From the NCBI GenBank assembly GCA_026390935.1, contig JAPLEZ010000142.1, positions 35,196 through 99,195 of the forward strand: a stretch of DNA of 64,000 bases, in the 5' to 3' direction. Of the stretch, positions 8,039-47,440 are shown in pieces. The stretch's first letter is position 1; every line of letters starts with the position of its first letter. The DNA comes from Bacteroidota bacterium (GTDB lineage Bacteria; Bacteroidota; Bacteroidia; Flavobacteriales_C; GCA-002722245). The notes under the pieces are model-generated. The model was not told where the DNA came from, did no database searches, and saw only the letters and a program-made list of their open reading frames with translations. The position numbers and the translations under genes are program-made.

Positions 8039-11000
8039 TTATTCAACAATAAATTTTATTGTTTTGTTTTGCTTGCTTTGAGCATCATGAATAGTACAGA
8101 AGTAAACACCTTTGCTTAGTTCTTGAGCCAAAACCGTTTGTGTTCCGACTTTTTCACTAATGAATGTTTTGTATATTGATTGACCAAGCACGTTGCTGAT
8201 TTCAATGTAATTGTGTTCATCAGCTGATGTGAAATGGTAAGTGATTTTGGATTCATTCACCACCGGAGAAGGGAAAATTTTGAGTTCGAACATTACGCCT
8301 TCGCCGAGAGGGGAGTTAACGTTGGTGGATCCTTTACCAACAATTTCCACATTCGCCCAGTCGCCATTGATCATGCCATAGCCAGTTTTCAAATCATTGA
8401 TAGTTAAGGCCTGGCCATCCAGCTTACGAACAGTGATGTAGTAGCAGGTACCTTTGGTATCCCAGGTGACAGGAGTGTAATTGGTTGACCGCAAATAATT
8501 GCTGCTGGCATCGTTGTTCCACATGAAATGGCTTTCATTGCCTGAAATACTGATGTCTTCTGTCATATCAACAATTTTCAGTGTTTGCGGGTTGTATTCC
8601 AATCCAAGGTCGAAACCGTATGCTGCTGCAGTGTCAGGAGCAAAGTAATTTACTGCGATACGGTAGTCGGTGGAGTTTAATTTTTCTGCTTTTTGCAAAT
8701 TGATGTTGAATGTGAATGGGCTCAACACTTTATCTGCGTCTTCAGTTTTAAGATGTAAGTTAGAAGTGTAATATTTACTGGTATAGTTCACCACATCGCC
8801 TAACAATATTCCTCTGAAGATTTCATTCGGACTGTCGGCGCATTGTTCCTGTATAGTAATACATTCAGGAACATTAGGCACATTGTCTCTCCAGTAACGC
8901 ACTTTTCCATCGTTGAAAGGATATTTGGTGGAGATCGTAAAATCGGGGTTGGTAGTTAGAATATCCGGATCGATGAATCTCCAGTCGAGTGATGGTTTAC
9001 CTTTTTGGTTTTGTACTTGTTTAAATTCGGTGATTTCACCAACCAATCTGCGTTGCAATTGAGTGATGTCGTTCGCCCGCACGGAGTCACTCATGTTCAC
9101 ATCGGCAGCAACCATTTGTCCGGCAGTTGGGATAAAAATACCAGGACAACTGGTGAGCACCATTTGATCAACACAGCTGTAGTTGTTCAATGTTGTGATG
9201 TATTCCATGGCTCTGGTATCGCGAGCATTTACATGATCAAGAAAGTTGAGTTTGGTGTTGTTGTTGATGTCGCGTTTGATCTGGATTACATTTTTGCTGG
9301 AGCTTACAGGAACAATAAAATTATTGGATGAATTGGTTCCTTTGTACGTGCCTAAAACTTTACCACCACAAGAATCAAGCACAGTGATTGTATTCAACGC
9401 ACCATTTGTTGTACCTATGGTGTGTGTAAGACCCTGGTAAAGTGAAATGCCTCCTGTTTTTTTGTAAGGTTGGTAATATTCAAGTGTTCCGGCAAAGGTT
9501 CCTGTGCCTGTTATTTTGAATGTGCCTTTATCCCAACAAACCGGTCGCTCAAAATAAGTGTACGACTCGTACATTTCACGCATCGTGAAATCAAAGGTAG
9601 TTCCAGCCGCTGGAGTTTTCTCTACAGTGAAAGGAACGCAGATTACCAGTCCCGAATCAACAAATTGTGGTGATCCCGGACCACTATGGCTGTTGTAGTA
9701 AATACTGATATTGGCGTGTCCGATATTTTTATCAGTTTCCACCGAAGGAGTTGTATTTACGCTGATGGCGTAAGTTCCTGGATAGCCGCCATTGAGCACT
9801 ACTTTTCCAAGATTTGAAGAAGATATTGTAATTACAGGCGATACATAACGCTTGTCATAACGGAGGGTGAAATCCATACCGATGATTCCTTTTCTTACGG
9901 GAACTAAAGCATTAATTGGCACGCAGATGTTTTTGTCTTTGCTTCCGCAAACCCACTTCACATCGGCGATGTCATATTCAAATCCTACTGAAATTGTATG
10001 TTGGTCGATGGCACTTCTTCCTGCAGCATCGTGCACCACCACTTGGTAAGTGCTATTCATTGTTGGTTTAACAATCAATGAATCGGCAGTTCCCAAAATA
10101 GTGCTTGAACCTACTTTAGTCCATTCATAAGTTAATGGATAAGTAACACAATTGCCTGGAGTATTGGGAACCACAGCTTTCAGCACAATTGGCGCGCTGG
10201 AGGCTTCATTGCCACAGATCACTGTTCCTCCAATGATGTTTACACTAAAGCTGTCGGGACAAGCTTTGTATGTTGGAACAATAGTATCCAATTCTGATAA
10301 TGTTGTTCCGCAGAAAGCAGATCCTGTAGTGAGAATAGAAGTTTTAGAAGTTGGAACATAAGTGTTGCAGCCACTGGCCACTTTTGCATCAAATTCCAAT
10401 GTGATGGTTTCATTACGTGCACCTTGCACCACTGCACCAGCAAAGGGAACTGTGCTGAATGCCGTGTCTTTCAGGTTGATGTTGTAAATGCCCTTATTGG
10501 ATGTTGTGCTATTGTCTTTAACACCATAAAATACTGGTCTGGACAGAGCGGCAGATCCGTATTTGATAACAATACTGTTGGTGTCTAAAGTCAATCCATC
10601 AGGGAAGTCAATATTATATTTTACGTTATTTACTTCTGAACCTGTGCTGGTGAGGTTATGTGTAAAATGAATTTTAGGATTGCTGCAATCGCCGCTCATA
10701 TCCGTTGAACTTACATTTCCTAAAATTCCGGAAGCGATGGAATAGGCTTTTATGTTTAGCGTATCATAGTAGCAAAGATTAGTTAAATTAGAAAAATCAT
10801 TTGGAAATGCATTACAATCCCATCCATAGCCAATAATGAATGTAGCCGGTTTTTTCGCATCATTGATGCATTGAGCTAAGCCACCCGTAATTTTTAATGC
10901 GATGCTCTTATTTATATCTAAGGTGTTTGCCATATATGTTCGCGAATCCAACGGGTTTACTCCGTATAATATGGATACTATATCGCCACTCACAGTTTTT

Positions 11001-14000
11001 TTCAATTCAGTTACTTGATTGATAAGTGATGAACTTAATGTGATGGGATTAAATTTTGTTTGATCGTATGTTATTGTAACAAATGGAAATTTTGCTGGAG
11101 AGCCATTGCTGCCATTGTTTAAGGAAAAATCGAAGTTGAACGATCTTGTGGTTACAGCTACAATTCCTGTTGAAGTAAGAGTACTGCTTAATTGATTTAC
11201 TGGTGTGGCCAGGTCGTTTCCGGAAGACCGAGAAACAATGACGTCCGAATCAGTAATTGGGTCCAAGTCGAAAAACGTTTTAAATCGGTATTGTAATCCT
11301 AAGGCTGAAGTGTCTTTTGGCTGATCAGGAGTACGAGTTCTGCCTGCAGGAATTTTGCTGCAAACAGCTTCGTAGTTAATATATACATCATCACGTATAT
11401 GTTCATCAACCTGACGCATGGCACTTGACTGTGTCCCACTGCTTACTTCAACATCTGTTACGTTGGTGTAAATTCCGGGGATATCAAGATGAAGAAGGGT
11501 GTAATTAATTCCACCGATAGTAGCTTTACTGGCTGGAAGTGATTGAATTCCGGATCCCTGATAATAGCTCATTGCATAGCCTATGGGTACAGTTTTTCCA
11601 TCATCAACTCCCCATCTTTGGATATTTGTGAATTGATATCCTTCAGGAATAAGTGCATCTACTGCTTCAATCATGGGTGCCGGTCGGAATTCATAATTAA
11701 ATAATTTTGGAAAATTGTGATTTCCTATTGATGAAAAGAAGGATAATCGTCGATATTTATTGCAAGATAAATCGCTCTGGGGAGTGTTGTATCCATCCGG
11801 ATACCAGTACTCTTGCTGAACTCGGACTAGATTAAAAATAGCTTCGTAACCTTCGCAATTCAACCAAGTGTTTTTATAATAAGGATTGGTATAGGGAGGT
11901 GTGGGAATTGTCTCAATTACATTTCCCGCAGGATCTTTTACTACCGGTCCTAAAACCGGATCACACTGAAATTGTGGGAAATCCCTAACGTATGCCGATT
12001 TAGGTGTGGAAGAAAAGTAAGGCATGTTTTGAAAACTCACTTCTTCGTAAGCACCTGTAGTCTTTGAATTTTCTGTGATATCCATGAAAAATTCAATTTC
12101 AATTTCATCATAGGATTTAAAGCGGAAGTCTGCAGGTAAATCTGGTGATGATGAATTTTTGTAAGCATTAATCGTATTGATATTAATTTCAAATGTATTG
12201 CTGGTGGATGCGCTTTGTGTCAACAACACCGAAGCAGGCACATTAAAGGTGTAGTTTATGCTATTGCTTGTAATAATCACTTTTATAGGATTGACTTTGT
12301 CCACTTTAAATGTGCTATAAGGAAAAGTCATTTCCAGATAGGAATATTTTAATTCACCAATCATTAAATCATCGAAATGATGGCCCTTGCAATCTTCATA
12401 TCCTGTGAGGTAATATTTAGTATTCATTTGAAGGCGGTCACCCACAATTCCAAAATTGGTGCGAATATTATTATCAGGATTTGCATCGTTGTTTATTGTG
12501 TTTACATCTGCATTGGTCAATAGATTTCCGTTATCTGGAATACCATTGTTGTTGTTATCTACTTTGCCGTAGTTTAGCCTTTTCATGGTGACAGATCTGC
12601 CAGCTCCGCCTGGAAATTGACAACCCGGACACATAATATTGGTATTTCGGGTGATTTTTAAAGAAGGCATTACCAGTGGATTCCCACAAGTAGCATCTGC
12701 TATTAGGTACATTTCCACTGAGTAATTTGGTTTTTCTTTTTTCTTTGGGTCGGCGCAATTCCCAGTTAATGAATAAGCGATATCTGCTGCGTTTAAGTAA
12801 TTGTAAAGTATGGTACTTTTTTGATCGAAATTACTTTGAGGAAGAGTGGGGTAAAGTTTGTATAAGGTAGTTAAATCAAATTCAAACATTTTTATTTTCT
12901 GATAGTCGTATGCCGGCAACTCATTCGTGGGGATATTATATCCTACTGCCGTTCCGTTGGTGTTTGTAGGCAGCCAATTATTCCCATCCGGATTTCTAAA
13001 TTGCATTGTAGTATAATATTTGGCATCGCTTCCGGTATAATAATCCAAACCTCCCTCTAACTTTAATACAATTACAAGTCGGGCTTTATCTGCTTGAAAG
13101 TTCACTCCGTCACCGGGACCAGCGCCTAAAAAAGCACCCTCATTGCTTACAAATAGATTATTCAATCGGCAATTTCCGGTTTCATTTTCCTTGAGAGTAG
13201 AAACACGTTCAATGTAAAGAGCATTATTGTCTACATGTTCTTCATAGCATCCGCCGCAAATCATGTCATTGGCGGGTCCAAAATAGGTGGTATTCGAAAT
13301 ATCCGGATTTCCTAAAGTATTTGTTGTAGTTTTGTTCTTAGCTGCATAGGAAGCCGGTTCCTGCATAAATCCATTACAGTCGTCTTTCCCAATCCATCTA
13401 TTGGTCCATTGGTCGTAATAATTTACAGTGAAATTCACTAAATCTATTTTAGGTGCGCAATTGTACACGTTGAATTCTACATAGTAGGCATCTGTTCCAG
13501 AGATATTTCCGATGGGGAAAAAAGCGTCGGAAACAACATTAGTAAAGCATTTCGGATTTGATTTAATAATAGCAAGCCATGGTTTTGTTGGGTCAGCAAC
13601 CGGTGTAATAGTAAGAGGGGATCCGCTGGCTTGGTATTTACCGGTAGAGGTATTTAAAACAGCTTTATAAATGCGTACATCATTAATTGGAATTTCTTCT
13701 TCACCGGCAGAGGATATTTTGATACCAAAATCTTTTACTGTTTCACCTAAAGTTGGATTGTGCATTTTAGTGAAGTAGCTCACTTTACGAACACCGCTAT
13801 TGGCCGTAGGACTTATAGGATTGTAAGCACAAAAATCATGAGCTTCAACATCGATATCAAAGACATCAATAAATTCATTTTTCGCTTTGGATATATATTG
13901 AACTAATCTAGTTCCTGTTGACCAGGCATCTGCCATCTGGATGCAATTTGCGCCATTGATATCGCAAACATTTAATTCAATAGAGGATTGTCCTTTGGAG

Positions 14001-14458
14001 TTCACATCAATACAGTCGATTATTTTTACTCTTCTGGTAAAAATCAAGCCTTTGTTTGCACCTATGCTGGCAGGAAGATTGGTTACAATGAGTTCGTAAG
14101 AAGTCCCTGAGTTGATGCTTCCGTTCAAGGTTGCTGTACCAGTGCTTTTCCATGCAAAGGTAGTTCCGGCAGGGATAGCGCCTCCTTCGTAAGTCACCAC
14201 AATATCTTGCACGCTTAGCGCTCCTCCGTAATTATCTTTATAAGAAATAACTCCGGTAAATGGGTTGTCCGCATTACTGGTGTTTCTTACAGTAAAACTT
14301 TTGACGAGATCGGAGCCTTTGAATGCTGTTAAATTCCCTGAAGTAAAATCCTGAAAATTAGGAGCTGTAACAATAAGTTTCAGCTCTGCTTGGGCGTTGG
14401 CGTAAAGCGATGCCAACCACACCATCATGAAGGTGAAGAAGATTTTTTTTGCTTTCAT
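8039..14458 (-). CDS. Giant (2139 aa) T9SS-secreted surface protein, paralog A, with type-A (Por_Secre_tail) C-terminal sorting domain
   Basis: N-terminal signal peptide MKAKKIFFTFMMVWLASLYANAQA. C-terminal ...GVYFCTIHDAQSKQNKTIKFIVE typical of a T9SS type-A CTD. Contains Ig-like segments, Cys-rich motifs (ICGGCY, MCPGCQFPGGAGR) and a dockerin-like motif (AADVNMSDSVRANDITQLQRRLVGE). Confidence 0.85.
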   Translation of the reverse strand: MKAKKIFFTFMMVWLASLYANAQAELKLIVTAPNFQDFTSGNLTAFKGSDLVKSFTVRNTSNADNPFTGVISYKDNYGGALSVQDIVVTYEGGAIPAGTTFAWKSTGTATLNGSINSGTSYELIVTNLPASIGANKGLIFTRRVKIIDCIDVNSKGQSSIELNVCDINGANCIQMADAWSTGTRLVQYISKAKNEFIDVFDIDVEAHDFCAYNPISPTANSGVRKVSYFTKMHNPTLGETVKDFGIKISSAGEEEIPINDVRIYKAVLNTSTGKYQASGSPLTITPVADPTKPWLAIIKSNPKCFTNVVSDAFFPIGNISGTDAYYVEFNVYNCAPKIDLVNFTVNYYDQWTNRWIGKDDCNGFMQEPASYAAKNKTTTNTLGNPDISNTTYFGPANDMICGGCYEEHVDNNALYIERVSTLKENETGNCRLNNLFVSNEGAFLGAGPGDGVNFQADKARLVIVLKLEGGLDYYTGSDAKYYTTMQFRNPDGNNWLPTNTNGTAVGYNIPTNELPAYDYQKIKMFEFDLTTLYKLYPTLPQSNFDQKSTILYNYLNAADIAYSLTGNCADPKKKEKPNYSVEMYLIADATCGNPLVMPSLKITRNTNIMCPGCQFPGGAGRSVTMKRLNYGKVDNNNNGIPDNGNLLTNADVNTINNDANPDNNIRTNFGIVGDRLQMNTKYYLTGYEDCKGHHFDDLMIGELKYSYLEMTFPYSTFKVDKVNPIKVIITSNSINYTFNVPASVLLTQSASTSNTFEININTINAYKNSSSPDLPADFRFKSYDEIEIEFFMDITENSKTTGAYEEVSFQNMPYFSSTPKSAYVRDFPQFQCDPVLGPVVKDPAGNVIETIPTPPYTNPYYKNTWLNCEGYEAIFNLVRVQQEYWYPDGYNTPQSDLSCNKYRRLSFFSSIGNHNFPKLFNYEFRPAPMIEAVDALIPEGYQFTNIQRWGVDDGKTVPIGYAMSYYQGSGIQSLPASKATIGGINYTLLHLDIPGIYTNVTDVEVSSGTQSSAMRQVDEHIRDDVYINYEAVCSKIPAGRTRTPDQPKDTSALGLQYRFKTFFDLDPITDSDVIVSRSSGNDLATPVNQLSSTLTSTGIVAVTTRSFNFDFSLNNGSNGSPAKFPFVTITYDQTKFNPITLSSSLINQVTELKKTVSGDIVSILYGVNPLDSRTYMANTLDINKSIALKITGGLAQCINDAKKPATFIIGYGWDCNAFPNDFSNLTNLCYYDTLNIKAYSIASGILGNVSSTDMSGDCSNPKIHFTHNLTSTGSEVNNVKYNIDFPDGLTLDTNSIVIKYGSAALSRPVFYGVKDNSTTSNKGIYNINLKDTAFSTVPFAGAVVQGARNETITLEFDAKVASGCNTYVPTSKTSILTTGSAFCGTTLSELDTIVPTYKACPDSFSVNIIGGTVICGNEASSAPIVLKAVVPNTPGNCVTYPLTYEWTKVGSSTILGTADSLIVKPTMNSTYQVVVHDAAGRSAIDQHTISVGFEYDIADVKWVCGSKDKNICVPINALVPVRKGIIGMDFTLRYDKRYVSPVITISSSNLGKVVLNGGYPGTYAISVNTTPSVETDKNIGHANISIYYNSHSGPGSPQFVDSGLVICVPFTVEKTPAAGTTFDFTMREMYESYTYFERPVCWDKGTFKITGTGTFAGTLEYYQPYKKTGGISLYQGLTHTIGTTNGALNTITVLDSCGGKVLGTYKGTNSSNNFIVPVSSSKNVIQIKRDINNNTKLNFLDHVNARDTRAMEYITTLNNYSCVDQMVLTSCPGIFIPTAGQMVAADVNMSDSVRANDITQLQRRLVGEITEFKQVQNQKGKPSLDWRFIDPDILTTNPDFTISTKYPFNDGKVRYWRDNVPNVPECITIQEQCADSPNEIFRGILLGDVVNYTSKYYTSNLHLKTEDADKVLSPFTFNINLQKAEKLNSTDYRIAVNYFAPDTAAAYGFDLGLEYNPQTLKIVDMTEDISISGNESHFMWNNDASSNYLRSTNYTPVTWDTKGTCYYITVRKLDGQALTINDLKTGYGMINGDWANVEIVGKGSTNVNSPLGEGVMFELKIFPSPVVNESKITYHFTSADEHNYIEISNVLGQSIYKTFISEKVGTQTVLAQELSKGVYFCTIHDAQSKQNKTIKFIVE

Positions 14459-14556
14459 TTGTTTGCGATTTAATAGAGGTTATGTTATTAAGTGCGCAAA
14501 ACTATCTAGCGAATTGGGAATCGCAAATACCCATTTTTACCTGATTTCGGTTTTGG

Positions 14557-14598
14557 GTGCAATAAAAAAGCCTTGTCGTTTTTGCGACAAGGCTTTTT
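14557..14598 (-). terminator. Rho-independent terminator (bidirectional hairpin) downstream of 14620..14841
   Basis: Perfect inverted repeat AAAAAGCCTTGTCG (loop TTTTTG) CGACAAGGCTTTTT, flanked by A/T runs. Confidence 0.7.
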
Positions 14599-14619
14599 AA
14601 AATTCTTGAATTTTATTTT

Positions 14620-14841
14620 TTAATATTCGTCCTCATTAAAGAGGAAATCATCTTTAGTTGGATAATCCGGCCAAATTTCTTCGATGGATTCGTAAGGCTC
14701 ACCTTCGTCTTCAATCTCCTGTAAGTTTTCAATTACTTCCATTGGCGCTCCAGAACGTTGAGCGTAATCAATCAATTCATCTTTGGAAGCTGGCCAAGGC
14801 GCGTCCGTTAAATACGATGCTAATTCTAATGTCCAGTACAT
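14620..14841 (-). CDS. Small acidic conserved hypothetical protein (DUF2795-like)
   Basis: 73 aa. MYWTLELASYLTDAPWPASKDELIDYAQRSGAP...WPDYPTKDDF pattern recalled for DUF2795. Followed by a strong terminator. Confidence 0.55.
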   Translation of the reverse strand: MYWTLELASYLTDAPWPASKDELIDYAQRSGAPMEVIENLQEIEDEGEPYESIEEIWPDYPTKDDFLFNEDEY

Positions 14842-14957
14842 ATATTATGTGTTTTTAAGTCCTAGTGTTTGAAACGCAAAAATAGATTTTTTGTTTACAC
14901 TACAAAGAAAAAAAGAAAATAATTCAGTGAATGCCTTGATAGAGGCTAGTTTCCCGT

Positions 14958-15509
14958 TTATTTTTTAACGGGGATCCAAGGTGATTCCGCCACTTTTGAA
15001 TCAAAGCCGGTTTTTCTGGCCAAAATAAAAAGGTAATCGGAAAGGCGGTTGAGGAGTTTTAATATGTGTGGATGAAGATGACCTTGCATGTTCAATTGCA
15101 CAATTCTTCGTTCTGTTCTTCGACATACCGCTCTGCAAACATGAATGTGCGAAATGATAAGGTTTCCGCCTGGAAGCACAAAGTGCTTCATTTCTGGTAA
15201 TGGATTGTTCATTTCATCAATGGCTTTTTCCAGCTCAGTGACCAAAGCCTCGTTGAATTCAGGCAAAGGCAGTGAATTTTTATCGGGAACAGCAGCGAGA
15301 TGTGCACCAATGGTGAACAATTCGGTTTGAATGTCAATGATGAGGTGTTGTTGTTTGGATGCAATTTGCAGAGAGCGAATCAATCCTAAATATGAATTCA
15401 ATTCATCTAAAGTCCCATACGCTTCTAAACGCAAATCGCTTTTTGATAAGCGCGTTCCGCCATACAAACCTGTTTCTCCTGAGTCTCCTGTCTTCGTGTA
15501 TATTTTCAT
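14958..15509 (-). CDS. ATP:cob(I)alamin adenosyltransferase, PduO type
   Basis: MKIYTKTGDSGETGLYGGTRLSKSDLRLEAYGTLDELNS matches the PduO/MMAB N-terminal signature. Confidence 0.85.
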   Translation of the reverse strand: MKIYTKTGDSGETGLYGGTRLSKSDLRLEAYGTLDELNSYLGLIRSLQIASKQQHLIIDIQTELFTIGAHLAAVPDKNSLPLPEFNEALVTELEKAIDEMNNPLPEMKHFVLPGGNLIISHIHVCRAVCRRTERRIVQLNMQGHLHPHILKLLNRLSDYLFILARKTGFDSKVAESPWIPVKK

Positions 15510-15652
15510 GGTAGATTGCCCCTCTCGACTAAAAATAGAAAAATAGAATTAAAAAAAAGAATGTTTTCTTGTAGAGACGCAAAATTTTGCGTCTCAATGG
15601 ATGAATTTGATGGGAGACGGAAAATCTTCCGTCTCTACAAAACCATCTGTGT

Positions 15653-16438
15653 TTAAAACTGCAAAATGAAATGTTCTTTTTCGCGACCTTTTTTAAAAAA
15701 AACGAGTCCGATAAAAAATAAATCGACAGTTGCTGTCACCTCTGGATGTTGTTGAATTTCCTTCCAGGCCTTCTCCATTTCGTCGCTCCAATGTATGTCG
15801 TCGAAAATCAATAATGTTTCTTCATGCACCAATGGCAAACATTGTTTGAAATAACGCACTGTTGGTTCGTATTGATGATTGCCGTCGATAAATACAAAGT
15901 CGAGGGAAGTTGTTTTACTTAGCACGTTTTGAAATGTCTCGTCGAAATTCCCAACTGTAATATTGATGTTATTTAATTTCAACGAATCAAAAACTTTTCG
16001 GGCCACTTTCGCGGTTTCCGGACAGCCTTCCAGTGTTTCAACAACAGCATTTTTATTGGCTGCTGCGAGGTAGGAAGTGGACATGCCAAGAGAAGTTCCA
16101 AGCTCCACTATATTTTTTGGTTGAAGATGATCAACCAATCGAAAAAACAATTTTCCGAATTTTTCGGGCTTGGCTGCGCGTTGAGCAATGTCCTTGATTT
16201 TTCTTTTTCTGCCGTTGCCAAACTGTGATCCAGCACCGAAATCGGTGATGGTGATTTCGTTTTCATTAGCGAGCAAAGCCTTGCGAGCACCTTCTATTTC
16301 ATCGAAAGGATAGTAGTGCTTTTTGGATAAAATCACTTCCGAGTACAATTTGAAAACAAAGGGAGAATGAATGCTGTAGCGGGTTTTTGCCCTAAGCAGG
16401 TACACAATATATTTTATGGCGGTCTTTAGTAAATGCAC
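15653..16438 (-). CDS. Class I SAM-dependent methyltransferase (O-methyltransferase-like)
   Basis: Rossmann-fold region VELGTSLGMSTSYLAAA...DFVFIDGNH typical of family-3 O-methyltransferases. Confidence 0.7.
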   Translation of the reverse strand: MHLLKTAIKYIVYLLRAKTRYSIHSPFVFKLYSEVILSKKHYYPFDEIEGARKALLANENEITITDFGAGSQFGNGRKRKIKDIAQRAAKPEKFGKLFFRLVDHLQPKNIVELGTSLGMSTSYLAAANKNAVVETLEGCPETAKVARKVFDSLKLNNINITVGNFDETFQNVLSKTTSLDFVFIDGNHQYEPTVRYFKQCLPLVHEETLLIFDDIHWSDEMEKAWKEIQQHPEVTATVDLFFIGLVFFKKGREKEHFILQF

Positions 16439-16538
16439 TTTTCAAACCTACATGATTCTTTATGATTCTCAAAAAATACAGTGATTAAAGTTGAGTGGCA
16501 GGATAATTGCATCAAAAAACGCACAAAACTTTTTTCTG

Positions 16539-17321
16539 ATGAAATCACTAGTCCTTTTTCTCGCTTTATCCACTTTTACAATTGCGCAAGCACAATCAAG
16601 ACTGACTTTGTTTGCCGTACAATCCAATCCAATTCTAGGTTTTAAACAACAAGGCTACTTGTCGGGTGGAGGCGTAGGAATGGGTTTGTATTATGTTATT
16701 GGTAACGACAATCTGTTTTCGTTGGACTTGGGCGGATCGGGTTTTGTTTCATACAATGGTGATCGTTCAGGATCTTCACCCATTGGAACCTATACCGTGG
16801 ATAACAGCTTTGGGGGTGGCTTTTTAGAAGGAAGAGTTTTGTTAAACCTTAAGCAGTGGAAACCATACATGCAGATGCATTACGGCGTTATTAATTGCAA
16901 AACAGAAGAATCAGTGCAGGATGTGAGCAGTAAATTATTTAGCGAAAGTTCAATCAACCATGGCGTTGGATTGGGAATTTTGTACGAAGCATCTGATGAT
17001 TTTTATATTGATTTTGGAGTAATGTATAACAGAGGAGGTAGTGTGAATTTTTTGGATCTGAATTCGTTCAGCTCAAAGGGAAATGTGATAGATTATAATG
17101 TTAACAGTGCTTCCAGCGACATGTTGATTTTCAAACTTGGCATTGCTTTTTACATTGATCAATTTGCTGGTAGCAGCAGCACTAGTTCGTACTCTTCTAA
17201 TTCAACTCCCTATTATGATAATGGCAATAGGAACAATTGCAATACATCATCGCCTCCCTCTTACGATAGAACGCCTACTATTATTCATCATGGAAAAACA
17301 CCTGTTGGAATTTCAAGATAA
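16539..17321 (+). CDS. Outer-membrane beta-barrel protein (OmpA-like barrel / porin family) with S/N-rich C-terminal tail
   Basis: Signal peptide MKSLVLFLALSTFTIAQAQS. Alternating hydrophobic, Gly and aromatic beta-strand pattern. The ORF track starts at an upstream TTG (16491), and the ATG at 16539 gives a canonical signal peptide. Confidence 0.65.
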   Translation: MKSLVLFLALSTFTIAQAQSRLTLFAVQSNPILGFKQQGYLSGGGVGMGLYYVIGNDNLFSLDLGGSGFVSYNGDRSGSSPIGTYTVDNSFGGGFLEGRVLLNLKQWKPYMQMHYGVINCKTEESVQDVSSKLFSESSINHGVGLGILYEASDDFYIDFGVMYNRGGSVNFLDLNSFSSKGNVIDYNVNSASSDMLIFKLGIAFYIDQFAGSSSTSSYSSNSTPYYDNGNRNNCNTSSPPSYDRTPTIIHHGKTPVGISR

Positions 17322-17376: not shown

Positions 17377-18974
17377 TTAAAGTATGGTCATGGTGCGGTT
17401 TATGGTGTATGTAATACCGTCGGCACCTCGCACAACAATTTCTAACGACACGCTTTCATTTTTTCGTAAGGCTCTTATAGAATTGATTTGAGTAGGATTG
17501 AAAACGCCACCGGGAGCATCTGTTTGAGGTCCCAGATCACTTCCCCTCACAAACTGTACTTTACAACTTTGTATGCTAGGAGTTGCGCTTAAAGGAAAAT
17601 CGTCGGAATATTTCGCTTTTATTTTCCCGATAGCCAATATTTCCGACTTATTGATTTTACCGCCAACTTCTTTATTTCCTAATATTATCTCCGGTTTTGG
17701 AAGTTTTTTGATCATCCATTGGTAAGTTCCCATGGTTTCCCATTTTCCTGGACTAATTTCTGCCTGAACCACGATATCCGTTTTTCCAATCGCGTTAGGT
17801 GTAAAGACAAATTGGCCATTGCCTTTTTTTGAGATGCTACATTTGCTATTAGACACACGAATTTTATCGCTTGAAATCCCTGGAACGGAAATAGTCATTT
17901 CGTTGGCCAATTTCATGTACATGATATTCAGTTTATCCGATGAAACTACTGCTGACGGCTGAGCTACCAAATATTTATTTTCAAAAGGATAAGTTAAAAA
18001 CTCTCCCTTGCGTTTCGGATTGGGATGCGGAATTCTCACTACTCCTTTCCATGTATGCTCGCCAACAGAGTTCCCCATACTTGCATAGTTTCCAAACCCG
18101 TCTGTGATATTCAATGTATCAGCTTTAGATCGAAATTTCAACTCTCCTGATGTGGTGAATAAATCGCTATCGTAATCTCCTATTAAAATGATGGCTTTTG
18201 CGTGGTATCCGACGCGGCTAAAAATATTTGCGCCTTGTATTGCTCGCCTTTCATCACATAACTGCTTTGCGCAATGGTAGCGGCCTGTATTTTATTCACC
18301 TTGTAAGTGTCTATCCCCAATTCTTCAAAAAGATAGTTGATGGTAATAGACTCGGTATTTCGTAAATAAGATTGAATATTGCTGAGGTTGGCGGTTACTG
18401 CAGCCAGCGGAAGATGCTCAGAAATTCCTGCTTCCCAAGTGGTTTTGCTTCCTTCGTAATCTTTGTATTCATCAGTCGCTAAAAGTGTGGAAATACTTTG
18501 GCGGATGGAAGTGTCTTTTTTATCAATCAAATTGACAACATATTCCTTCAAAGCAGTAATTTTTTTTCTTAAATCTTCGCCATGGCCCTTGGTCATCAGG
18601 TATTCAGCGCCGATGTCCTGATTGTCTTTCGCCAGCGGAATATTGTGCTCATCCACGCCGCCGGTATTTTCGATGAGCCACGTTTTGTGGGTTTCAATCA
18701 AAGCCGACAATTCCTGAATTTTAGCCTTCACCGTTTTGGCTTTTAGTAAGCTTTCTTTTGCCGCTTTGGAATTGGTGGCTGCTGCTGCTTCAATTTTGTT
18801 GTAGACGGGCTGAATATTTTCCACAAAATTATTGGCGGTGAGGTCGATTCCGCTTTCTAATTTTAAAAAAGCATCCAGTAAATCTTTGGATGCATTCATC
18901 GCCAACATGGCGAGTAATACGAGATACATCATGCCTATCATTTGCTGGCGGGGACTGAGTTTTTCTGCTGACAT
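17377..18974 (-). pseudogene. gldM: gldM/porM (gliding motility / T9SS motor component) disrupted by a frameshift. The N-terminal fragment is 18183..18974 and the C-terminal fragment 17377..18141, whose frame is open up to 18291
   Basis: N-terminus MSAEKLSPRQQMIGMMYLVLLAMLAMNASKD matches the GldM N-terminal TM region. The C-terminal fragment carries the GldM Ig-like domain motif SSDKLNIMYMKLANEMTISVPGISSDKI. The two fragments are in different frames with a 108-nt overlap. Adding one A to the A4 run at 18185..18188 yields a continuous protein of about 517 aa (...SDTTQKPSFLIGDYDSDLFTTSGELKFRSK...). Confidence 0.75.
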
Positions 18975-19183
18975 AGGGTTAAATTTTTTAAGGGTTTCTT
19001 CTCCATCAATGCAGGAAATTTGGATTGGTTACAAATGGATGTGCTTCTGGTTTTTTAGATGCCCCTAAACTTTTTTAACAGCGTCCCCTAAACATTTCTG
19101 TTTTTTCCTTGTGTTTATTCTTTGATAATGCGTATATTCGCGATCCTTTTTCTGTTTTATTTTTATTAAAGAATCGATTGAGT

Positions 19184-22100
19184 ATGATTGAGAATCAAGG
19201 ATTATATCACCCGTCATTTGAGCATGACTCTTGCGGGATCGGGTTTGTAGCGAATCTTAAGAACAAAAAATCCAATAAAATTATTCAGGATGCTATTGCC
19301 ATGTTGGAGAACATGGAGCATCGTGGTGGTTGTGGTTGCGAACCTGAAACTGGTGACGGTGCAGGGGTACTCATCCAAATGCCTCACGATTTTTTGAAAA
19401 ATGAACTCGAAAAACAAAACATTGAATTGCCTGAGTCAGGACAATACGGTGTTTGTATGACCTTCTTTCCTAAGGATGCAGATGAGCAACAACGTTGTAA
19501 GGATTTGTTTGTGGAATATGCTGTTCGCCTTGGATTTGATGTAATTGGCTTCCGCGTGGTTCCTACTGATAATTCAATGTTGGGCGCTACTTCAAAAAGA
19601 GTAGAACCACATGTTGAGCAAATCTTTTTGACTTTTAAAGATAGCAAGGATCCTGAGGCTTTGGAAAGAAGATTGTGTGTGTTGAGAAAATACGCCAACC
19701 GAAATATCCACCGCGAATTACCAAACACATACGATAGCTTCCACATTACTTCAAGCTCTTACAAAGTAATCGTTTACAAAGGTCAGTTGCGTACCAACCA
19801 ATTGCGCCCTTACTACAAAGATTTACAAACGAAAGAGATTGCTTCTGCGATGGCAGTAGTTCACTCTCGTTTCTCTACCAATACTACAGCGAAATGGAGA
19901 TTGGCTCAGCCTTTCCGTTTCATCGCCCACAACGGTGAAATCAACACAATCAAAGGTAACGTAAACTGGATGCGTTCTAAACAAGTTTTGTTGGAAAGCA
20001 CTTTGTTTACTGTGGAAGAAATCGACTGGATGATGCCAATTTGCGACATCAACCGTTCGGATTCATCCAACTTGGACAACGTTGTTGAGATTTTGACCTT
20101 AGGTGGTCGCCCGATGGCGCAGGTGATGATGATGCTGGTGCCTGAGGCATGGCAACAAAATCCTGGTATGCGTGAAGAAAAAAGGGCGTTCTACGAATAC
20201 TATTCTTCTATCATGGAGCCTTGGGATGGTCCGGCTTCTATCTCTTTTACCGATGGTAAAGTGGTGGGTGCTACTTTGGATAGAAACGGTTTGCGTCCGT
20301 CAAGATATTGCGTGTTGGATGACGATACTTTGATCATGTCTTCTGAAGCTGGTTCATTGCCAGTGGACGAATCGAAAGTGATTGAAAAAGGTCGTTTGCA
20401 ACCAGGTAAAATATTTGTTGCCGACTTGGAAAAAGGTCGCATCATCTCTGATAAAGAGTTGAAAGACGAAATTTGTTCTGCTAAACCTTACGGTAGATGG
20501 TTGAAAGAGAACAAGCTGACTTTAAAAGATTTGGCTCGTCCGATGAAAAAAACCAACGCTCCAACCAAAGGAATGGAGTTGTTGCAAAAACAAATTGCTT
20601 ACGGATTTACACGTGAAGATTTGAATACGATTCTGGAGCCAATGGCGAAAGACGGTATGGAGCCACTGGGATCAATGGGGACCGATGTTCCACTAGCAGT
20701 GTTGTCTTCACAAAGTCAGCATTTGGCAAGTTATTTCAAGCAATTGTTTGCACAGGTTTCTAACCCGCCAATTGACCCGATCCGTGAAAAAGTGATCATG
20801 TCGCTTTACACCAACTTGGGTTCACAAAAAAATATTTTGGCTGAAACGCCAGAACACTGTCGTCAGATCCACTTGGATGACCCTCAATTGTCGAATGGAC
20901 AATTGGATAAACTCCGCAAGCTGAACGACGGTTCATTTAAATCATATACTATCAATGCTATTTTCAGCGCTTCGGACAGACCGGGAACTTTGGAAAATGC
21001 TATCGATGAAATTTGCGCCAATGCTGAACGTGCAACTTTAATGGGTTGCAACGTGCTGATCATTTCCGATAGAAATGTAGATGCCAACACAGCACCAATT
21101 CCTTCTTTATTAGCGGTAGGAGCAATTCATTCCGACTTAATTAAAAAAGGATTGAGAACCCGTACAAGTTTAGTAGTTGAAGCTGGTGATGTGATTGAAG
21201 TTCATCATTTTGCTACCTTGATTGGTTTTGGTGCCAACGCTGTAAACGCTTACTTGGCAGGTGATACCATCCGTTCCATGTTCGAAGAAGAGCTGGTAGC
21301 TGGAGAAACCAATATCAAAAAATTATTGGGCAACTACGCTAAAGCCATCAATTATGGTTTGTTGAAAGTGTTCTCAAAAATGGGAATCTCTACAGTACAA
21401 TCTTACCAGGGTGCTCAAATCTTTGAAGCTTTAGGTATCGGTCCGGCTGTGATTGAAAAATGTTTCAGTGGTACAGTTTCTCGTATCAAAGGGATGACTT
21501 TTGATGACTTGGCAAAGGAGGTTTTGATTCGTCACAAACGCGCTTATCAAAATACAAGTCTGGATAAACACTTGTTCATTGGTGGTTACTACCAGTGGAA
21601 AAGAAAAGGAGAGGCGCATTTGTTCAATCCTGAATCTATTTCTTTATTACAAAAAGCAACAAGAACAAACGACGTAAATGTTTACAAACAATTTGCGCAA
21701 AAAATAAACGACCAAAGTCAGCAAGCGCTCACTTTACGTAGCATGCTGCAACTGAAAAAAGGAAATCCTATTCCTTTGGATCAAGTGGAATCTAAAGAAA
21801 GTATCTTCAAGCGTTTCGCTACAGGTGCAATGTCTTTTGGATCTATTTCTTACGAAGCACACAGCACTTTGGCAATTGCGATGAACCGCATTGGTGGTAA
21901 ATCCAACTCGGGTGAAGGTGGTGAAGATGAAGCTCGCTATGCTAAAAAAGCAAATGGGGATTGGGAAAGAAGTGCAATCAAACAAGTGGCTTCTGGCCGT
22001 TTTGGGGTAACAGCACATTACTTAACCAATGCTGATGAATTACAAATTAAAATTGCTCAAGGTGCTAAACCGGGTGAAGGTGGACAATTACCGGGACATA

Positions 22101-23707
22101 AAGTTGATGAGTGGATCGGACGTGTGCGTCACTCAACGCCAGGAGTTGGTTTGATTTCCCCTCCTCCTCACCACGATATTTACTCTATTGAGGATTTGGC
22201 GCAATTGATTTACGATTTAAAAAATGCCAACCGTGCTGCACGCATCAACGTTAAGTTGGTGTCGGAAGCTGGTGTAGGTACTATTGCTTCTGGTGTTGCC
22301 AAAGCAAAAGGTGATGTGGTGTTGATCGCTGGTTACGATGGTGGAACAGGAGCTTCTCCTATCAGTTCTATCCGTCACGCTGGATTGCCATGGGAATTGG
22401 GCTTGGCTGAAACACACCAAACATTATTATTAAACGATTTAAGAAGTCGTATCACTGTACAAACCGACGGACAATTGAGAACCGGTCGTGATATCGCCAT
22501 CGCTACTTTATTGGGAGCGGAAGAATGGGGTATCGCCACAGCTTCCTTAGTAGTTGCAGGTTGTATCATGATGCGTAAATGTCACTTGAATACTTGTCCG
22601 GTAGGAGTTGCTACACAAGATCCTGAATTGAGAAAACTCTTTACAGGAAATCCTGATCACGTAGTGAACTACTTTACTTTCGTTGCAGAAGATCTTCGTT
22701 CTATCATGGCTGAATTAGGATTCAGAACTATTGATGAAATGGTGGGAAGAACAGATTTGTTAGAAGTGAAGTACAACGAACCGAACTGGAAAACTAAAAA
22801 CTTAGATTTATCTCCTTTATTATATCGTCCGAATGTTGCTGCAGGTGTAGGTTCTTACAAGCAAAAAGAGCAGGATCATGAGATCCACGACATCATTGAT
22901 CGCAAATTAATGGAGATCGCTAAACCAGCCATTGAAAAAGGTACAGCGGTTAAAAAAGAATTCAAAATCATTAATACAGATCGTTCGGTTGGTGCAATGT
23001 TGTCGAACGAAATCTGTAAAGTTCACGGTGGCGTTGGTTTACCAGCTGGAACTATCGACATTAAATTTGTTGGTTCTGCCGGACAAAGCTTCGGAGCTTT
23101 CACCACAACAGGTGTTCGTTTCACAGTAGAAGGAGAAGCCAACGATTATTTCGGTAAAGGCTTATCGGGTGCTGAACTGGTGATTTATCCAAACAAGAAA
23201 ACCAAGTATGTTGCTGAAGACAATATGATCATTGGTAACGTTGCTTTTTACGGAGCTACTTCCGGGAAAGCTTTTATCCGCGGACAAGCGGGCGAGCGAT
23301 TCTGCGTAAGAAACTCAGGTGTTACAACCGTTGTAGAAGGTATTGGTGATCATGGTGTGGAATACATGACTGGTGGTAGAGTAGTGGTATTGGGTAAAAC
23401 CGGAAGAAACTTTGGTGCTGGTATGAGCGGTGGTTATGCCTATATCTGGGACAAATGGAAAGAATTTGCTGGAAATTTCAACAATGAATTATCTGATATC
23501 GAAGTGCTTTCTGCAGAAGACGCTGCTGAATTGAAAGCCTTGATTGAAGAGCATTTCCAATACACAAATAGTGGTGTTGCAAAAGGAATTTTGGATAACT
23601 GGGACAAAGAGTTGAAGTATTTCAAAAAGGTAATGCCACGCGATTACAAACGTGTGGTGGAAAAAAAGAAAGCAGATAAAAAAGAGAAAAAAGAATTGGT
23701 TAAATAA
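19184..23707 (+). CDS. gltB: Glutamate synthase (NADPH) large subunit
   Basis: MIENQGLYHPSFEHDSCGIGFVANL gives the amidotransferase N-terminal Cys after the propeptide. FMN and Fe-S regions. The C-terminal GXGXG domain is present. The ORF track extends upstream to a non-conserved start, and I chose the ATG at 19184. Confidence 0.9.
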   Translation: MIENQGLYHPSFEHDSCGIGFVANLKNKKSNKIIQDAIAMLENMEHRGGCGCEPETGDGAGVLIQMPHDFLKNELEKQNIELPESGQYGVCMTFFPKDADEQQRCKDLFVEYAVRLGFDVIGFRVVPTDNSMLGATSKRVEPHVEQIFLTFKDSKDPEALERRLCVLRKYANRNIHRELPNTYDSFHITSSSYKVIVYKGQLRTNQLRPYYKDLQTKEIASAMAVVHSRFSTNTTAKWRLAQPFRFIAHNGEINTIKGNVNWMRSKQVLLESTLFTVEEIDWMMPICDINRSDSSNLDNVVEILTLGGRPMAQVMMMLVPEAWQQNPGMREEKRAFYEYYSSIMEPWDGPASISFTDGKVVGATLDRNGLRPSRYCVLDDDTLIMSSEAGSLPVDESKVIEKGRLQPGKIFVADLEKGRIISDKELKDEICSAKPYGRWLKENKLTLKDLARPMKKTNAPTKGMELLQKQIAYGFTREDLNTILEPMAKDGMEPLGSMGTDVPLAVLSSQSQHLASYFKQLFAQVSNPPIDPIREKVIMSLYTNLGSQKNILAETPEHCRQIHLDDPQLSNGQLDKLRKLNDGSFKSYTINAIFSASDRPGTLENAIDEICANAERATLMGCNVLIISDRNVDANTAPIPSLLAVGAIHSDLIKKGLRTRTSLVVEAGDVIEVHHFATLIGFGANAVNAYLAGDTIRSMFEEELVAGETNIKKLLGNYAKAINYGLLKVFSKMGISTVQSYQGAQIFEALGIGPAVIEKCFSGTVSRIKGMTFDDLAKEVLIRHKRAYQNTSLDKHLFIGGYYQWKRKGEAHLFNPESISLLQKATRTNDVNVYKQFAQKINDQSQQALTLRSMLQLKKGNPIPLDQVESKESIFKRFATGAMSFGSISYEAHSTLAIAMNRIGGKSNSGEGGEDEARYAKKANGDWERSAIKQVASGRFGVTAHYLTNADELQIKIAQGAKPGEGGQLPGHKVDEWIGRVRHSTPGVGLISPPPHHDIYSIEDLAQLIYDLKNANRAARINVKLVSEAGVGTIASGVAKAKGDVVLIAGYDGGTGASPISSIRHAGLPWELGLAETHQTLLLNDLRSRITVQTDGQLRTGRDIAIATLLGAEEWGIATASLVVAGCIMMRKCHLNTCPVGVATQDPELRKLFTGNPDHVVNYFTFVAEDLRSIMAELGFRTIDEMVGRTDLLEVKYNEPNWKTKNLDLSPLLYRPNVAAGVGSYKQKEQDHEIHDIIDRKLMEIAKPAIEKGTAVKKEFKIINTDRSVGAMLSNEICKVHGGVGLPAGTIDIKFVGSAGQSFGAFTTTGVRFTVEGEANDYFGKGLSGAELVIYPNKKTKYVAEDNMIIGNVAFYGATSGKAFIRGQAGERFCVRNSGVTTVVEGIGDHGVEYMTGGRVVVLGKTGRNFGAGMSGGYAYIWDKWKEFAGNFNNELSDIEVLSAEDAAELKALIEEHFQYTNSGVAKGILDNWDKELKYFKKVMPRDYKRVVEKKKADKKEKKELVK

Positions 23708-27963: not shown

Positions 27964-27964
27964 G

Positions 27965-28825: not shown

Positions 28826-28828
28826 AAA

Positions 28829-29767: not shown

Positions 29768-29776
29768 ATCTTTGTT

Positions 29777-31550: not shown

Positions 31551-33413
31551 ATGAGCTTTATAGTCAATCGCGTGCGGGTTATTTTTGCGACCACATTCTT
31601 CGTTATTTTTTTTAGTTTTCAGGGATACGGGGTTACCTATTACGTGAATGACAATTCAACTACGGGCGACATTTACTGTTCGGCAGTTGGAAATAATGGA
31701 ACTGGAACGGGCTCACAATCGAATCCCTACTTAACGGTTTCTTATGTGATAAACAATAAGACTTTGGGTGCCGGAGACATTGTATACATTGATGCTGGAA
31801 ATTACAATGAAGGTTGGGTTTTAAATTCCAATGCTGATGGAGGAAGTGCCGGAAATCCTTTGACGTTCCAAGGAGCAGGAGTTTCGTTGACGAAAAATAT
31901 TTACACCTCTTCTCAGGGAATAGCTATTGGAAATGGATCGGGTGCAGGTAATAGCTACATTACTTTTAAAGATGTGTATGTAGAAACTACACAAAACGTA
32001 AACACGGTATATGTTAATGCCGGAACGTCAAATATCATTTTTAATAGCTGCTCCTTTAAATCGGTGGTTAGTGGTGCGGCGATCGTTTTTATGTCAGCAA
32101 GCTCATGTAGAGTGATATCGTGCAGTATTAGCACTGTATACAATGGCATTGACTCCTATAACGGCTCAAATCAGATTTTCGACGGGAACACAATTACGCA
32201 TGCTTCGGCCTATACAGCTGGACAAAATCATCTTGGAATTATTGTAGAAGGTACTACAAGTTTTCCTGCACCTTATTTGGCAGACAACTGTGTTATTAGT
32301 AGTAATCGCGTGAGTGGATTTAATTATGGATTTTACATTCAACAAGAAGGCACCGGAAACACTTGGAAGAATAACTATGTGTGGGCAACTGAATACGGTT
32401 TGTTTTGTCCCAATAGCACATATAGTCATGCTTCCAACACTTTTAAATTCAATTCCATTTTATCTGATAAGGATTGTATTTACGGTGCTTGTTTAAGCTG
32501 GGACATTCAAAGCAACATTCTTTATTCCAACACGAGAAATTGTATCACTTTGCTGGATGCTTCCAACGACCCATCTACAATGAATTATAATTTGTATTAT
32601 GCACCAAGTGGTAACATTGGAAGCAGAAATGGGACTACATATGCAACTTTGGCGGCTTGGAAAGCAGCGCTTTCAAAAGATGTCAATAGTTTAAGTGGCA
32701 ATCCTTTATTTTCAAGCACTACAGTTTTGGATATTACGGGTTCATCTCCAGCAATTGGGCTTGCAGGCACCGATGCTGGCGTAACGGATGACGTGCGAAG
32801 AAATCCGACTTACACTCGTCCAACAAGCAATAAGGATATTGGGGCTTTTCAATATAGCAGTGCAGTCTTGCCTGTTGAACTCATTGATTTTTCTGCGTTT
32901 GTTGTTGATGGCGGCAATGAAGTTAGTTGGGTAACTGGTACTGAAATTAACAACGATTATTTTACACTGGAGCGTTCTCATGACGGAATAAACTTTAGTG
33001 CTATTCATTATGAAAAGGGGGCGGGAAGTTCTAATTCGATCATTAATTATTCATATGTTGACAATGCTAAATCTACTGGAATCGTGTATTACAGACTGAA
33101 GCAAACAGATTACGACGGCACCTTTTGCTACTCAAAAGTAGTAGCTGTAGAAAGTAAAAATTCAAATAATTTCTCTTTTTTACTTTACCCTAATCCTTCC
33201 AATGGCAGTACAATTTCCTTTGTTCTGCCTGAAAATAAAGCATCTTCATCCTTAGAAATATATGATGCTTTAGGTAAAATAATATTTTCTGAAAAACTCA
33301 CTTCTCAGAGCCACTATATTTTGGAATGGAGCGAAAAACCCGCTGCTGGTGTTTATTTCGTGACTTTGAAAAGTGGTGATCAAAGTTTTAATCAAAAACT
33401 AATCGTGGAGTAA
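31551..33413 (+). CDS. Secreted right-handed parallel beta-helix (PbH1) repeat protein with T9SS type-A C-terminal sorting domain
   Basis: Signal peptide. Repeated NxxFxxCxF/GxxxG beta-helix turns. C-terminal ...GVYFVTLKSGDQSFNQKLIVE. Confidence 0.75.
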   Translation: MSFIVNRVRVIFATTFFVIFFSFQGYGVTYYVNDNSTTGDIYCSAVGNNGTGTGSQSNPYLTVSYVINNKTLGAGDIVYIDAGNYNEGWVLNSNADGGSAGNPLTFQGAGVSLTKNIYTSSQGIAIGNGSGAGNSYITFKDVYVETTQNVNTVYVNAGTSNIIFNSCSFKSVVSGAAIVFMSASSCRVISCSISTVYNGIDSYNGSNQIFDGNTITHASAYTAGQNHLGIIVEGTTSFPAPYLADNCVISSNRVSGFNYGFYIQQEGTGNTWKNNYVWATEYGLFCPNSTYSHASNTFKFNSILSDKDCIYGACLSWDIQSNILYSNTRNCITLLDASNDPSTMNYNLYYAPSGNIGSRNGTTYATLAAWKAALSKDVNSLSGNPLFSSTTVLDITGSSPAIGLAGTDAGVTDDVRRNPTYTRPTSNKDIGAFQYSSAVLPVELIDFSAFVVDGGNEVSWVTGTEINNDYFTLERSHDGINFSAIHYEKGAGSSNSIINYSYVDNAKSTGIVYYRLKQTDYDGTFCYSKVVAVESKNSNNFSFLLYPNPSNGSTISFVLPENKASSSLEIYDALGKIIFSEKLTSQSHYILEWSEKPAAGVYFVTLKSGDQSFNQKLIVE

Positions 33414-37708: not shown

Positions 37709-37856
37709 AAAAATATTTGTTGTTAGTAGTGGCGCTAAAATAGGCATATTATTTAAAGCTGTCAATATCTTAAACAGTTTCATTGCACACTCACCAACTA
37801 TCTTTATATTAGCGCTATTCTTCCAAAAAGCAAACAACTGTGACCTGTAAATAGAG

Positions 37857-42294: not shown

Positions 42295-42422
42295 TAGATA
42301 CTGTTTGATTGTTTTATGAGCATGCAATATGGGTATTATATTGATGGGGAACTAATAAATTGTAAAACAAAAAAGCAATCCCTGTTGGAGATTGCTTCTT
42401 TCGTTTTACTGTATATGTTTTG

Positions 42423-44699: not shown

Positions 44700-45686
44700 T
44701 TATGGTTGATAAGGATGATTGATCGTAAATATTGGATGATCGAAAGCAACTGATACTGCATTGGTATAAGGCGCCACTTGATCAGAAAGCAAAACAAAAG
44801 AGACTTTATCCAACTTATCTGGTTTACCAGGTGTTGACACATTGTCTAATAGCTCAGCATAGGTGTAGCTCAATAATTTCCATCCTGTCCAATCTGGACG
44901 TATATTGATATGTCGAGCTACGCCGCCTTCTTCCCAAAAATTTACTAAAAACCAAGTGTCCGACGGACCATTTCCATAAACCATTATATTGAAATATACT
45001 TTGTTGGAATCGGTCGATAAACCGTAGGTTGAACCATGATTCACATCTGCTTTATTGGAAGCAATATCCATGTAATTTACATAAGGTTCGATAGGTAACT
45101 TGGGATCAAAATTTTGGTGTTTCCATGGCGTTCCCGACATGTAAAAATATTTACCGCCGTCGGCTTTTGGATGAGAATTATCGAATACAGTTACTGCAGG
45201 CCAGTCGCGAGGCCAATCGGTAGCGCTTTTCAATGCAGAGAAATCAGTGATGAGAATGCCATTTTTATCAGGATTTCTCAAGCCTGTTATTGGCATCGTT
45301 GTTTTGAAAGTGTCGGTGGTATGTTTAAAGGTGAGAAAAATGGTCACAGTTTCTTTTTGGAAAGATGGAACGTCATCAGCGGTACCATTCCAAAGTGCAT
45401 TTGATTTATCTACCACTTTTGAAATGGTAGTAAATGTTTTTGTAGCGCCGCTGGTATTCCCTTTTACGGTAATTACCCAGTCGGTTTCTTTTTCAAAGGA
45501 CGCCGTAAAATAAACCGTTTCATCTTTTGAAAAATCTACAGCGGACATACTTTTATTGAGTGGATCAACAACCGTTACCGGACCGTAAATCCCAACAATG
45601 GAAGGGCCTAGCGTGTCTTTTCTGCAGCCGAACTGCAGAGTAAGAACAGCGGTAAAGGCAATTAATATAAATGATAAGTTCTTCAT
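44700..45686 (-). CDS. Hypothetical lipoprotein, candidate glycan-binding surface protein
   Basis: Lipoprotein signal MKNLSFILIAFTAVLTLQFGC. Sits between the GH3 gene and the outer-membrane barrel genes. Confidence 0.5.
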   Translation of the reverse strand: MKNLSFILIAFTAVLTLQFGCRKDTLGPSIVGIYGPVTVVDPLNKSMSAVDFSKDETVYFTASFEKETDWVITVKGNTSGATKTFTTISKVVDKSNALWNGTADDVPSFQKETVTIFLTFKHTTDTFKTTMPITGLRNPDKNGILITDFSALKSATDWPRDWPAVTVFDNSHPKADGGKYFYMSGTPWKHQNFDPKLPIEPYVNYMDIASNKADVNHGSTYGLSTDSNKVYFNIMVYGNGPSDTWFLVNFWEEGGVARHINIRPDWTGWKLLSYTYAELLDNVSTPGKPDKLDKVSFVLLSDQVAPYTNAVSVAFDHPIFTINHPYQP

Positions 45687-45697
45687 AATTTCTTCAA

Positions 45698-47401: not shown

Positions 47402-47440
47402 GGTAGATGTATATAAGTTTTTCATTTGTTTCTGTTTTCT

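Follow-up and report, generated by a model that had tools for sequence, protein, structure and literature searches.

The window, by which we mean the whole 64 kb stretch of DNA that was analysed, contains a homologue of gldM that is spread over two overlapping minus-strand reading frames (Table 1). The first begins with an ATG at 18974 and encodes 263 aa, ending in ...AASDTTQKPSF ahead of the stop codons TAA TAG (18180..18185); the second stays open from 18291 as far as its stop at 17377, and its homology to GldM starts at about 18192 and continues downward. All four GldM domains (1st to 4th) are found in order across the two frames with scores above the Pfam gathering scores, the fourth barely: GldM_1st (8.3e-29) and the beginning of GldM_2nd (3.2e-12) lie in the first frame, and the remainder of GldM_2nd, GldM_3rd (1.7e-18) and GldM_4th (27.1 bits, cut-off 24.6) in the second. 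A single base inserted at any point of the overlap joins the two frames to give a protein of 532 aa, and this repaired protein matches TIGR03517, the NCBIfam equivalog model 'type IX secretion system motor protein PorM/GldM' (cut-off 180 bits), with 301.6 bits, spanning positions 1-522 of the model's 524; the unrepaired fragments, at 178.9 and 116.6 bits, fail to reach the cut-off. A sequence-only reading of this DNA had described a gene that is GldM-like over its whole length and split over 18183..18291, and the domain matches and the two reading frames bear it out on both counts, although its figure of about 517 aa for the fused product is too low. Its concern that the split protein might not align to GldM models is answered by the TIGR03517 score, and the observation of a frameshifted gldM is confirmed. 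The public record gives little hint of this arrangement, since the NCBI annotation consists of just a 245 aa, TTG-started C-terminal piece (MCX6182745.1, 'GldM family protein', window 17377-18111) and an exact look-up of the 263 aa N-terminal product returned no record, so that the databases represent the gene by a fragment.

GldM/PorM is the rotor-shaft subunit of the proton-driven GldL5-GldM2 (PorLM) motor of the type IX secretion system, in which formula the numerals are subunit numbers; elsewhere we use GldM2 (gene gldM2) as the name of the protein described here. The references used for GldM/PorM were TIGR03517, the Pfam families PF12081, PF21601, PF21602 and PF12080, and the PDB entries 6YS8, 6EY4, 7CMG and 7SAU. 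The single membrane helix of the first frame, QMIGMMYLVLLAMLAMN, includes Arg9 and Tyr17 and aligns with the helix of PorM, and residues P8, R9, Q10, M12, I13, M16, Y17, L18, V19 and L20 are invariant in the aligned stand-alone and canonical sequences. In GldM/PorM the conserved helix arginine pairs with GldL. An AlphaFold model of the orthologue from the closest relative, nzgw150 (P0002, 84 % identical, mean pLDDT 81), consists of a helix, a helical D1 and three beta domains, and its best PDB matches are PorM 7CMG (1.8e-28), GldM 6EY4 and the GldLM motors 7SAU and 7SAX (TM 0.8).

Table 1. Features of the gldM2 locus and type IX cargo genes in the window
Feature	Position	Strand	Remarks
gldM2 N-terminal reading frame	18183..18974	-	Cytoplasmic N-terminus, membrane helix, helical D1, first D2 strands
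gldM2 second reading frame	17377..18291	-	Remaining D2, then D3, D4, native stop
Inferred missing base	between + strand 18192 and 18193	-	Third position of invariant Pro261 codon (AAG CC^ATC)
A4 run	18185..18188		Site favoured by the sequence-only reading; insertion closes the frame and gives QKPSFLIG
T4 run, third possible site	18196..18199		Insertion gives QKAIILIG and loses the invariant Pro
gltB-gldM2 intergenic region	18975..19183		Holds TGTAACCAAT (19024..19033) and GCATTGATGG (19003..19012)
gltB	19184..23707	+	Divergent neighbour of gldM2
OMP-like gene	16491..17321	+	Convergent; signal peptide MKSLVLFLALSTFTIAQA; weak Opacity-porin match
SAM-dependent O-methyltransferase	15653..16438	-	Methyltransf_24/3; downstream of gldM2
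Por_Secre_tail cargo (four genes)	8039..14458, 31551..33413, 36335..37951, 54203..55078		Type IX cargo
CHU_C cargo (two genes)	57305..62707, 62991..63713		Type IX cargo

The site of the missing base can be placed by comparison with homologues. On the minus strand the break reads ACG CAA AAG CC^ATC ATT TTA ATA GGA, and all 30 of the 30 closest homologues read DTTQ[QKE]P[IMVTL][IV].[VI]G at this point, with Pro261 invariant even when the canonical GldMs are included. Restoring a base within the Pro261 codon gives QKPIILIGDYD, in agreement with the homologues. Because the proline is invariant and the DTTQ-x-P text is restored exactly, the third base of this codon is the likeliest site of the loss, and its replacement is the most parsimonious repair. 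The frame is also closed by an additional base in the A4 run, as had been proposed earlier, but that run is probably not where the base was lost, as the resulting peptide mismatches two conserved positions of the consensus P-[IVMT]-I-L-[VI]-G and the Pro261 codon fits the homologues better.

The gene stands apart from the other genes of the type IX motor. The 64 kb window contains no gldK, no gldL and no gldN, and neither tblastn nor alignment revealed a gldL relic upstream of gldM2, which does not lie inside a gldK-gldL-gldM-gldN (porKLMN) operon. When GldK, GldL and GldN were compared by tblastn with all 61 fetched loci, a clean split was seen: every locus with a GldM of no more than 37 % identity carries gldK, gldL and gldN beside gldM, and none of about 25 stand-alone loci (43-85 % identity) has any of the three within 4-10 kb. 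The absence of gldK, gldL and gldN noted from the sequence is thus borne out across the 64 kb, as are the divergent gltB and the convergent OMP gene. The stand-alone location is real and is conserved in related Flavobacteriales, in which intact copies encode 531-537 aa; the copy in the window, lacking one base and lying in two frames, is not an intact ORF.

The shared synteny comprises divergent gltBD, then the OMP-like gene, the O-methyltransferase, a PduO-type adenosyltransferase and a DUF2795 gene. Syntenic intact orthologues of 532-533 aa are found in the metagenome-assembled genome (MAG) nzgw150 (85 % identity, with a gltB that is 98 % identical) and, at 71 % identity, in MAG CH-Oct18-48 and two metagenome contigs; a further syntenic orthologue, in MAG JBJTOK01, is 76 % identical over its first 435 residues. 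More distant members (L007-L009, L054 and L055, 43-48 % identity) are also alone, in other contexts. No partner of gldM2 is consistent across the loci. Some relatives have the OMP-like gene (48-54 % identity) and others lack it, so that it is no fixed partner; the most widely conserved downstream neighbour is the O-methyltransferase gene, which is kept to relatives at 48 % identity and has at most a putative functional link to gldM2. In the intergenic region, every relative with the gltB synteny retains the arrangement TGTAACCAAT-N11-GCATTGATGG some 40-60 nt ahead of gldM2, but L007, in which gldM2 does not adjoin gltB, lacks it; this motif may belong to the regulation of gltB. A scan for consensus promoters and terminators gave nothing above shuffled expectation.

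Several other features of the window may be mentioned. A cluster for beta-glucan degradation (42423-62707) includes genes for GH3 (42423..44669), GH16 (49425..50324) and GH81 (57305..62707) proteins, the last being a protein of 1,800 aa with a type B (CHU_C) secretion signal, and large proteins with no Pfam match are encoded nearby, three at 44700..49399 and one at 40489..42327. An 87 nt stretch at 14453-14540 is 86 % identical to one at 5540-5625, at the 5' ends of two giant genes, one for a Por_Secre_tail cargo of 2,139 aa and the other a reading frame longer than 1,855 aa, without a Pfam match, that extends beyond the start of the window. Directly downstream of the giant cargo gene are three tandem genes for LuxR-type (GerE) regulators (5668-7912), the first two with PAS domains, and homologues of this trio occur in the same order in L005. 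A conserved cluster of four genes at 27244-31231 (circularly permuted ATP-grasp, Alpha-E, transglutaminase-core and proteasome-type subunit) has syntenic counterparts in L003 and L004. A gene for a HipA-like toxin kinase (51228-52454) lies alone in a stretch of low G+C (0.336), and a 7TMR-DISM receptor (55380-57233) has a match to an IS1595-type zinc ribbon.

Two related MAGs could be checked for the canonical operon, and both have it. In MAG JBJTOK01 (GCA_046074525.1) the stand-alone gene is on contig 59 (MFM7023546.1) and porP-gldKLMN on contig 8, where the canonical GldM (MFM7021495.1, 552 aa) is encoded within topA-arginase-porP-gldK-gldL-gldM-gldN; the two contigs have similar composition (G+C 0.422 vs 0.419, tetranucleotide r 0.94). 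In the closest relative, nzgw150 (JAHEZL01, GCA_023251095.1), the stand-alone gene is on contig 24 and the operon, with a GldM of 541 aa, on contig 10. The co-occurrence of the two forms rests on MAG bins, which are possibly chimeric. The canonical GldMs are distinct proteins, 32-38 % identical to the stand-alone form, and in a neighbour-joining tree of 26 GldMs (300 bootstraps) the stand-alone clade, the canonical clade and their sister grouping each received 100 %, with both of the co-resident operon copies falling inside the canonical clade. These groupings place a duplication of gldM within this Flavobacteriales lineage, with both copies kept during its diversification, and the stand-alone gene is a conserved paralogue, GldM2, separate from the canonical gldM. 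We found no description of a GldM paralogue or of an orphan gldM in the literature searched. The neighbourhood of the canonical operon is itself fixed in three loci (L056, L061 and L063), in the order topA, arginase, porP, gldK, gldL, gldM, gldN, a gene of 166 aa, an AI-2E transporter and a NIT/HAMP histidine kinase; L056, which is among these canonical-operon loci of the lineage, has three GldN paralogues.

The divergence between co-resident paralogues is very unevenly distributed. Residues 1-40, with the membrane helix, are 88-92 % identical, and identity then falls to 31-39 % in D1, 28-32 % in D2, 29-38 % in D3 and 20-24 % in D4. Recent gene conversion was considered as the source of the alike N-termini and was rejected, since codons 1-40 contain 16-19 synonymous differences, and the similarity of the helix is therefore held by selection. 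Separately, the first 38 nt or so of stand-alone and canonical gldM (window 18937-18974, minus strand; L006, L005, L063 and L061) are nearly identical as DNA, synonymous sites included, and past this point synonymous sites vary freely; a constraint on the translation-start region may be the reason. The two clades also differ in where they vary: the canonical copies are best conserved in D3-D4 (95 % from one MAG to the other), and it is there that the stand-alone clade varies most; D2 of the latter carries a clade-specific motif, PHPNPKRKGEFLTYPFEN. The JBJTOK01 stand-alone gene (L005:10001-11629, JBJTOK010000059.1, P0007) has a different end, encodes 542 aa and has a clear GldM_4th match; relative to the window copy its D1-D2 is 84 % identical, D3 40 % and D4 20 %, and its distal domains look to have been replaced by recombination.

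The window copy shows little sign of having been broken for long. Compared with nzgw150 its dN/dS is 0.064 (0.060 before the break and 0.068 after it), dN to the outgroup is 0.237 for the window copy and the intact sister alike, and apart from the one missing base the gene has no further stop or indel and retains its native start and stop. The low dN/dS, the equal dN and the single lesion together imply that the break is either very recent or not real. The second of these, in which the gene is the same GldM2 paralogue, intact and functional in the organism, and the base is missing only through a fault in the assembly or consensus of the MAG, is a serious contender, although we lean away from it. 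It is favoured by the strong purifying selection on the family, with neither excess substitutions nor a second lesion in the window copy, and by the intact copies of 531-537 aa in all other close relatives but one lineage; a MAG consensus can hold local indels where strains differ, and one apparently split copy among the relatives (L059), at first a candidate for a third frameshift, was rejected as such when its split proved to be just a scaffold gap of Ns. That so strongly constrained a gene should be broken at all also raises the suspicion of an artefact.

Against this, the break site has no long homopolymer, its runs being only 2-4 nt, whereas all 141 of the 141 homopolymer runs of at least 6 nt in the intact ORFs of the window are in frame, as are six runs of 6-8 nt inside gldM2 itself, and no other broken gene was seen in the 64 kb. 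These counts argue against a homopolymer sequencing error, as had been suggested earlier, and an assembly error of another kind would be the more plausible artefact. Real lesions in this gene do occur, moreover, as the syntenic gldM2 beside gltB in two other MAGs (L057:5414-7011 and L058:3886-5483; GCA_049430665.1 and GCA_049429285.1) has an independent 1 nt deletion, TTG[G]CC GCA, which leaves frames of 192 and 336 aa, and the 1,598 nt gene is identical in the two assemblies. On balance we think it slightly more likely that the mutation is real and recent than that the assembly is in error. A same-strain copy was sought in GTDB species representatives and in JGI metagenomes, and none was found, the closest matches being 85 % and 71 % identical, respectively; a 151 aa query across the junction returned solely the C-terminal piece already annotated by NCBI (P0121 = MCX6182745.1). 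An exact look-up of the neighbouring PduO-type adenosyltransferase did lead to a 1,140 bp Logan contig from SRR20698652 that is 100 % identical to window 14453..15592, short of gldM2, and this run contains the window's strain.

If the gene were instead the sole gldM of its genome, detached from gldK, gldL and gldN, the break would have hit the only type IX motor, a possibility that the sequence-only reading had raised. The window does encode at least six type IX cargo proteins and none of the motor partners, the repaired protein scores above the GldM equivalog cut-off, and no canonical GldM of the window's own MAG was visible among the matches to the canonical GldM P0111. Absence from such lists is weak evidence, as the same kind of search missed P0121 despite an identity over 245 aa. 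Both of the relatives that were checked, including nzgw150 with its nearly identical gltB, hold the full operon with a distinct GldM on another contig, and the stand-alone and canonical forms make up separate, fully supported clades, so that a sole gldM is contradicted by inference and seems very unlikely; to judge from the two relatives, a canonical operon is probably present in the window's own genome.

Nor is it at all probable that this is a redundant duplicate in long-term decay, an old pseudogene. The gene is a duplicate, as one of the earlier readings had it, and it is broken both here and, independently, in another lineage, but the supposed decay finds no counterpart in a dN/dS of 0.064 in both halves, an unaccelerated rate, the lack of further lesions and the native start and stop, and the paralogue has stayed intact in a clade with members as far apart as 43 % identity. 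The comparison with orthologous loci that had been called for earlier shows relatives in frame among some 25 conserved stand-alone loci. Even less weight can be given to a programmed change of frame, either by -1 ribosomal slippage on CAA AAG, where the shift is of the needed sense, A-AAG is a shifty lysine codon context and the second broken copy (L057) would need a -1 shift at U-UUG, or by slipped-strand phase variation of GldM2, for no signal is conserved, the relatives read through the site in a single frame with different codons (CAG CAA CCC ACC, CAA CAA CCT ATT or CAA AAA CCA ATG), slippage on AAG would exchange the invariant Pro261 for alanine, and the phase-variable locus once proposed has no long repeat, its 2-4 nt runs being far below the usual length while the 6-8 nt runs of the gene are stable.

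The account that we prefer, to which we give a probability of about one in two, is that GldM2 is a conserved paralogue that is present beside the canonical operon and works with the same GldL towards a different output, and that in this MAG its gene has suffered a real and very recent deletion in the Pro261 codon. The gene arose when gldM was duplicated in a single lineage of uncultured Flavobacteriales, and it has been kept there since, alongside porP-gldK-gldL-gldM-gldN. Two GldM2 chains would sit inside the same GldL pentamer, a 5:2 complex suggested by the 88-92 % identity of the helix to that of the co-resident GldM, and proton flow would be converted to rotation of a different periplasmic shaft, whose partner may be something else than the GldK/GldN ring, or which may modulate the motor. 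The loss of one base from the Pro261 codon would be real, very recent and inactivating, and the broken allele would yield a stub of 263 aa (the helix, D1 and part of D2) together with a C-terminal piece that lacks an export signal. The cell would lose GldM2 function, and ordinary secretion would go on through the canonical operon, whose presence is suggested by the relatives. A bolder form of this proposal, which we regard as doubtful, is that in a clade of these Flavobacteriales GldM2 is a second, exchangeable rotor on the GldL stator, such that GldM drives the GldK/GldN track and GldM2 drives or regulates another envelope machine, and that this second rotor has been lost now and then, as here and in L057/L058.

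The frameshift as such is ordinary, and the conserved stand-alone paralogue is of modest but real interest. For annotation, a broken 'GldM' in MAGs of this kind does not imply that type IX secretion is dead, and one gldM per genome is the wrong number for this lineage. With a GldL-contacting helix that is nearly unchanged and shaft domains that have diverged, GldM2 amounts to a natural experiment on the motor and output parts of the protein, and it raises the idea of one GldL stator driving more than one shaft.

GldM2 resembles GldM/PorM in its length, its order of four domains, its N-terminal helix with Arg9 and Tyr17 and its predicted fold, and departs from it in being encoded alone, in forming a clade of its own and in D1-D4 that are only 20-39 % identical to those of the co-resident GldM. 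Truncated GldM'/PorM' constructs are reported to assemble with GldL still. The 263 aa stub is nearly equal in length to those made for cryo-EM of the GldLM' motors (263-268 residues; PDB 7SAU, 7SAX and 7SAT) and likewise contains the helix and D1, although these are engineered versions of the canonical protein and the stub is the predicted product of a broken gene. Dispersal of type IX core genes is known from Pedobacter heparinus and P. saltans, which fail the co-location rule of TXSScan (PMC10515386), but there single-copy genes are scattered, whereas the GldM2 lineage has an intact operon plus one additional, unlinked copy of the gene. A precedent for the duplication of a core component is provided by GldN and GldO of Flavobacterium johnsoniae, paralogous and partly redundant ring proteins of the type IX system in one genome (review PMC9127263). 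The two cases differ in that gldO adjoins gldN and is partly redundant with it, while gldM2 is unlinked from the canonical operon and its product has diverged strongly outside the membrane helix, and this combination argues for a separate role of GldM2 rather than redundancy.
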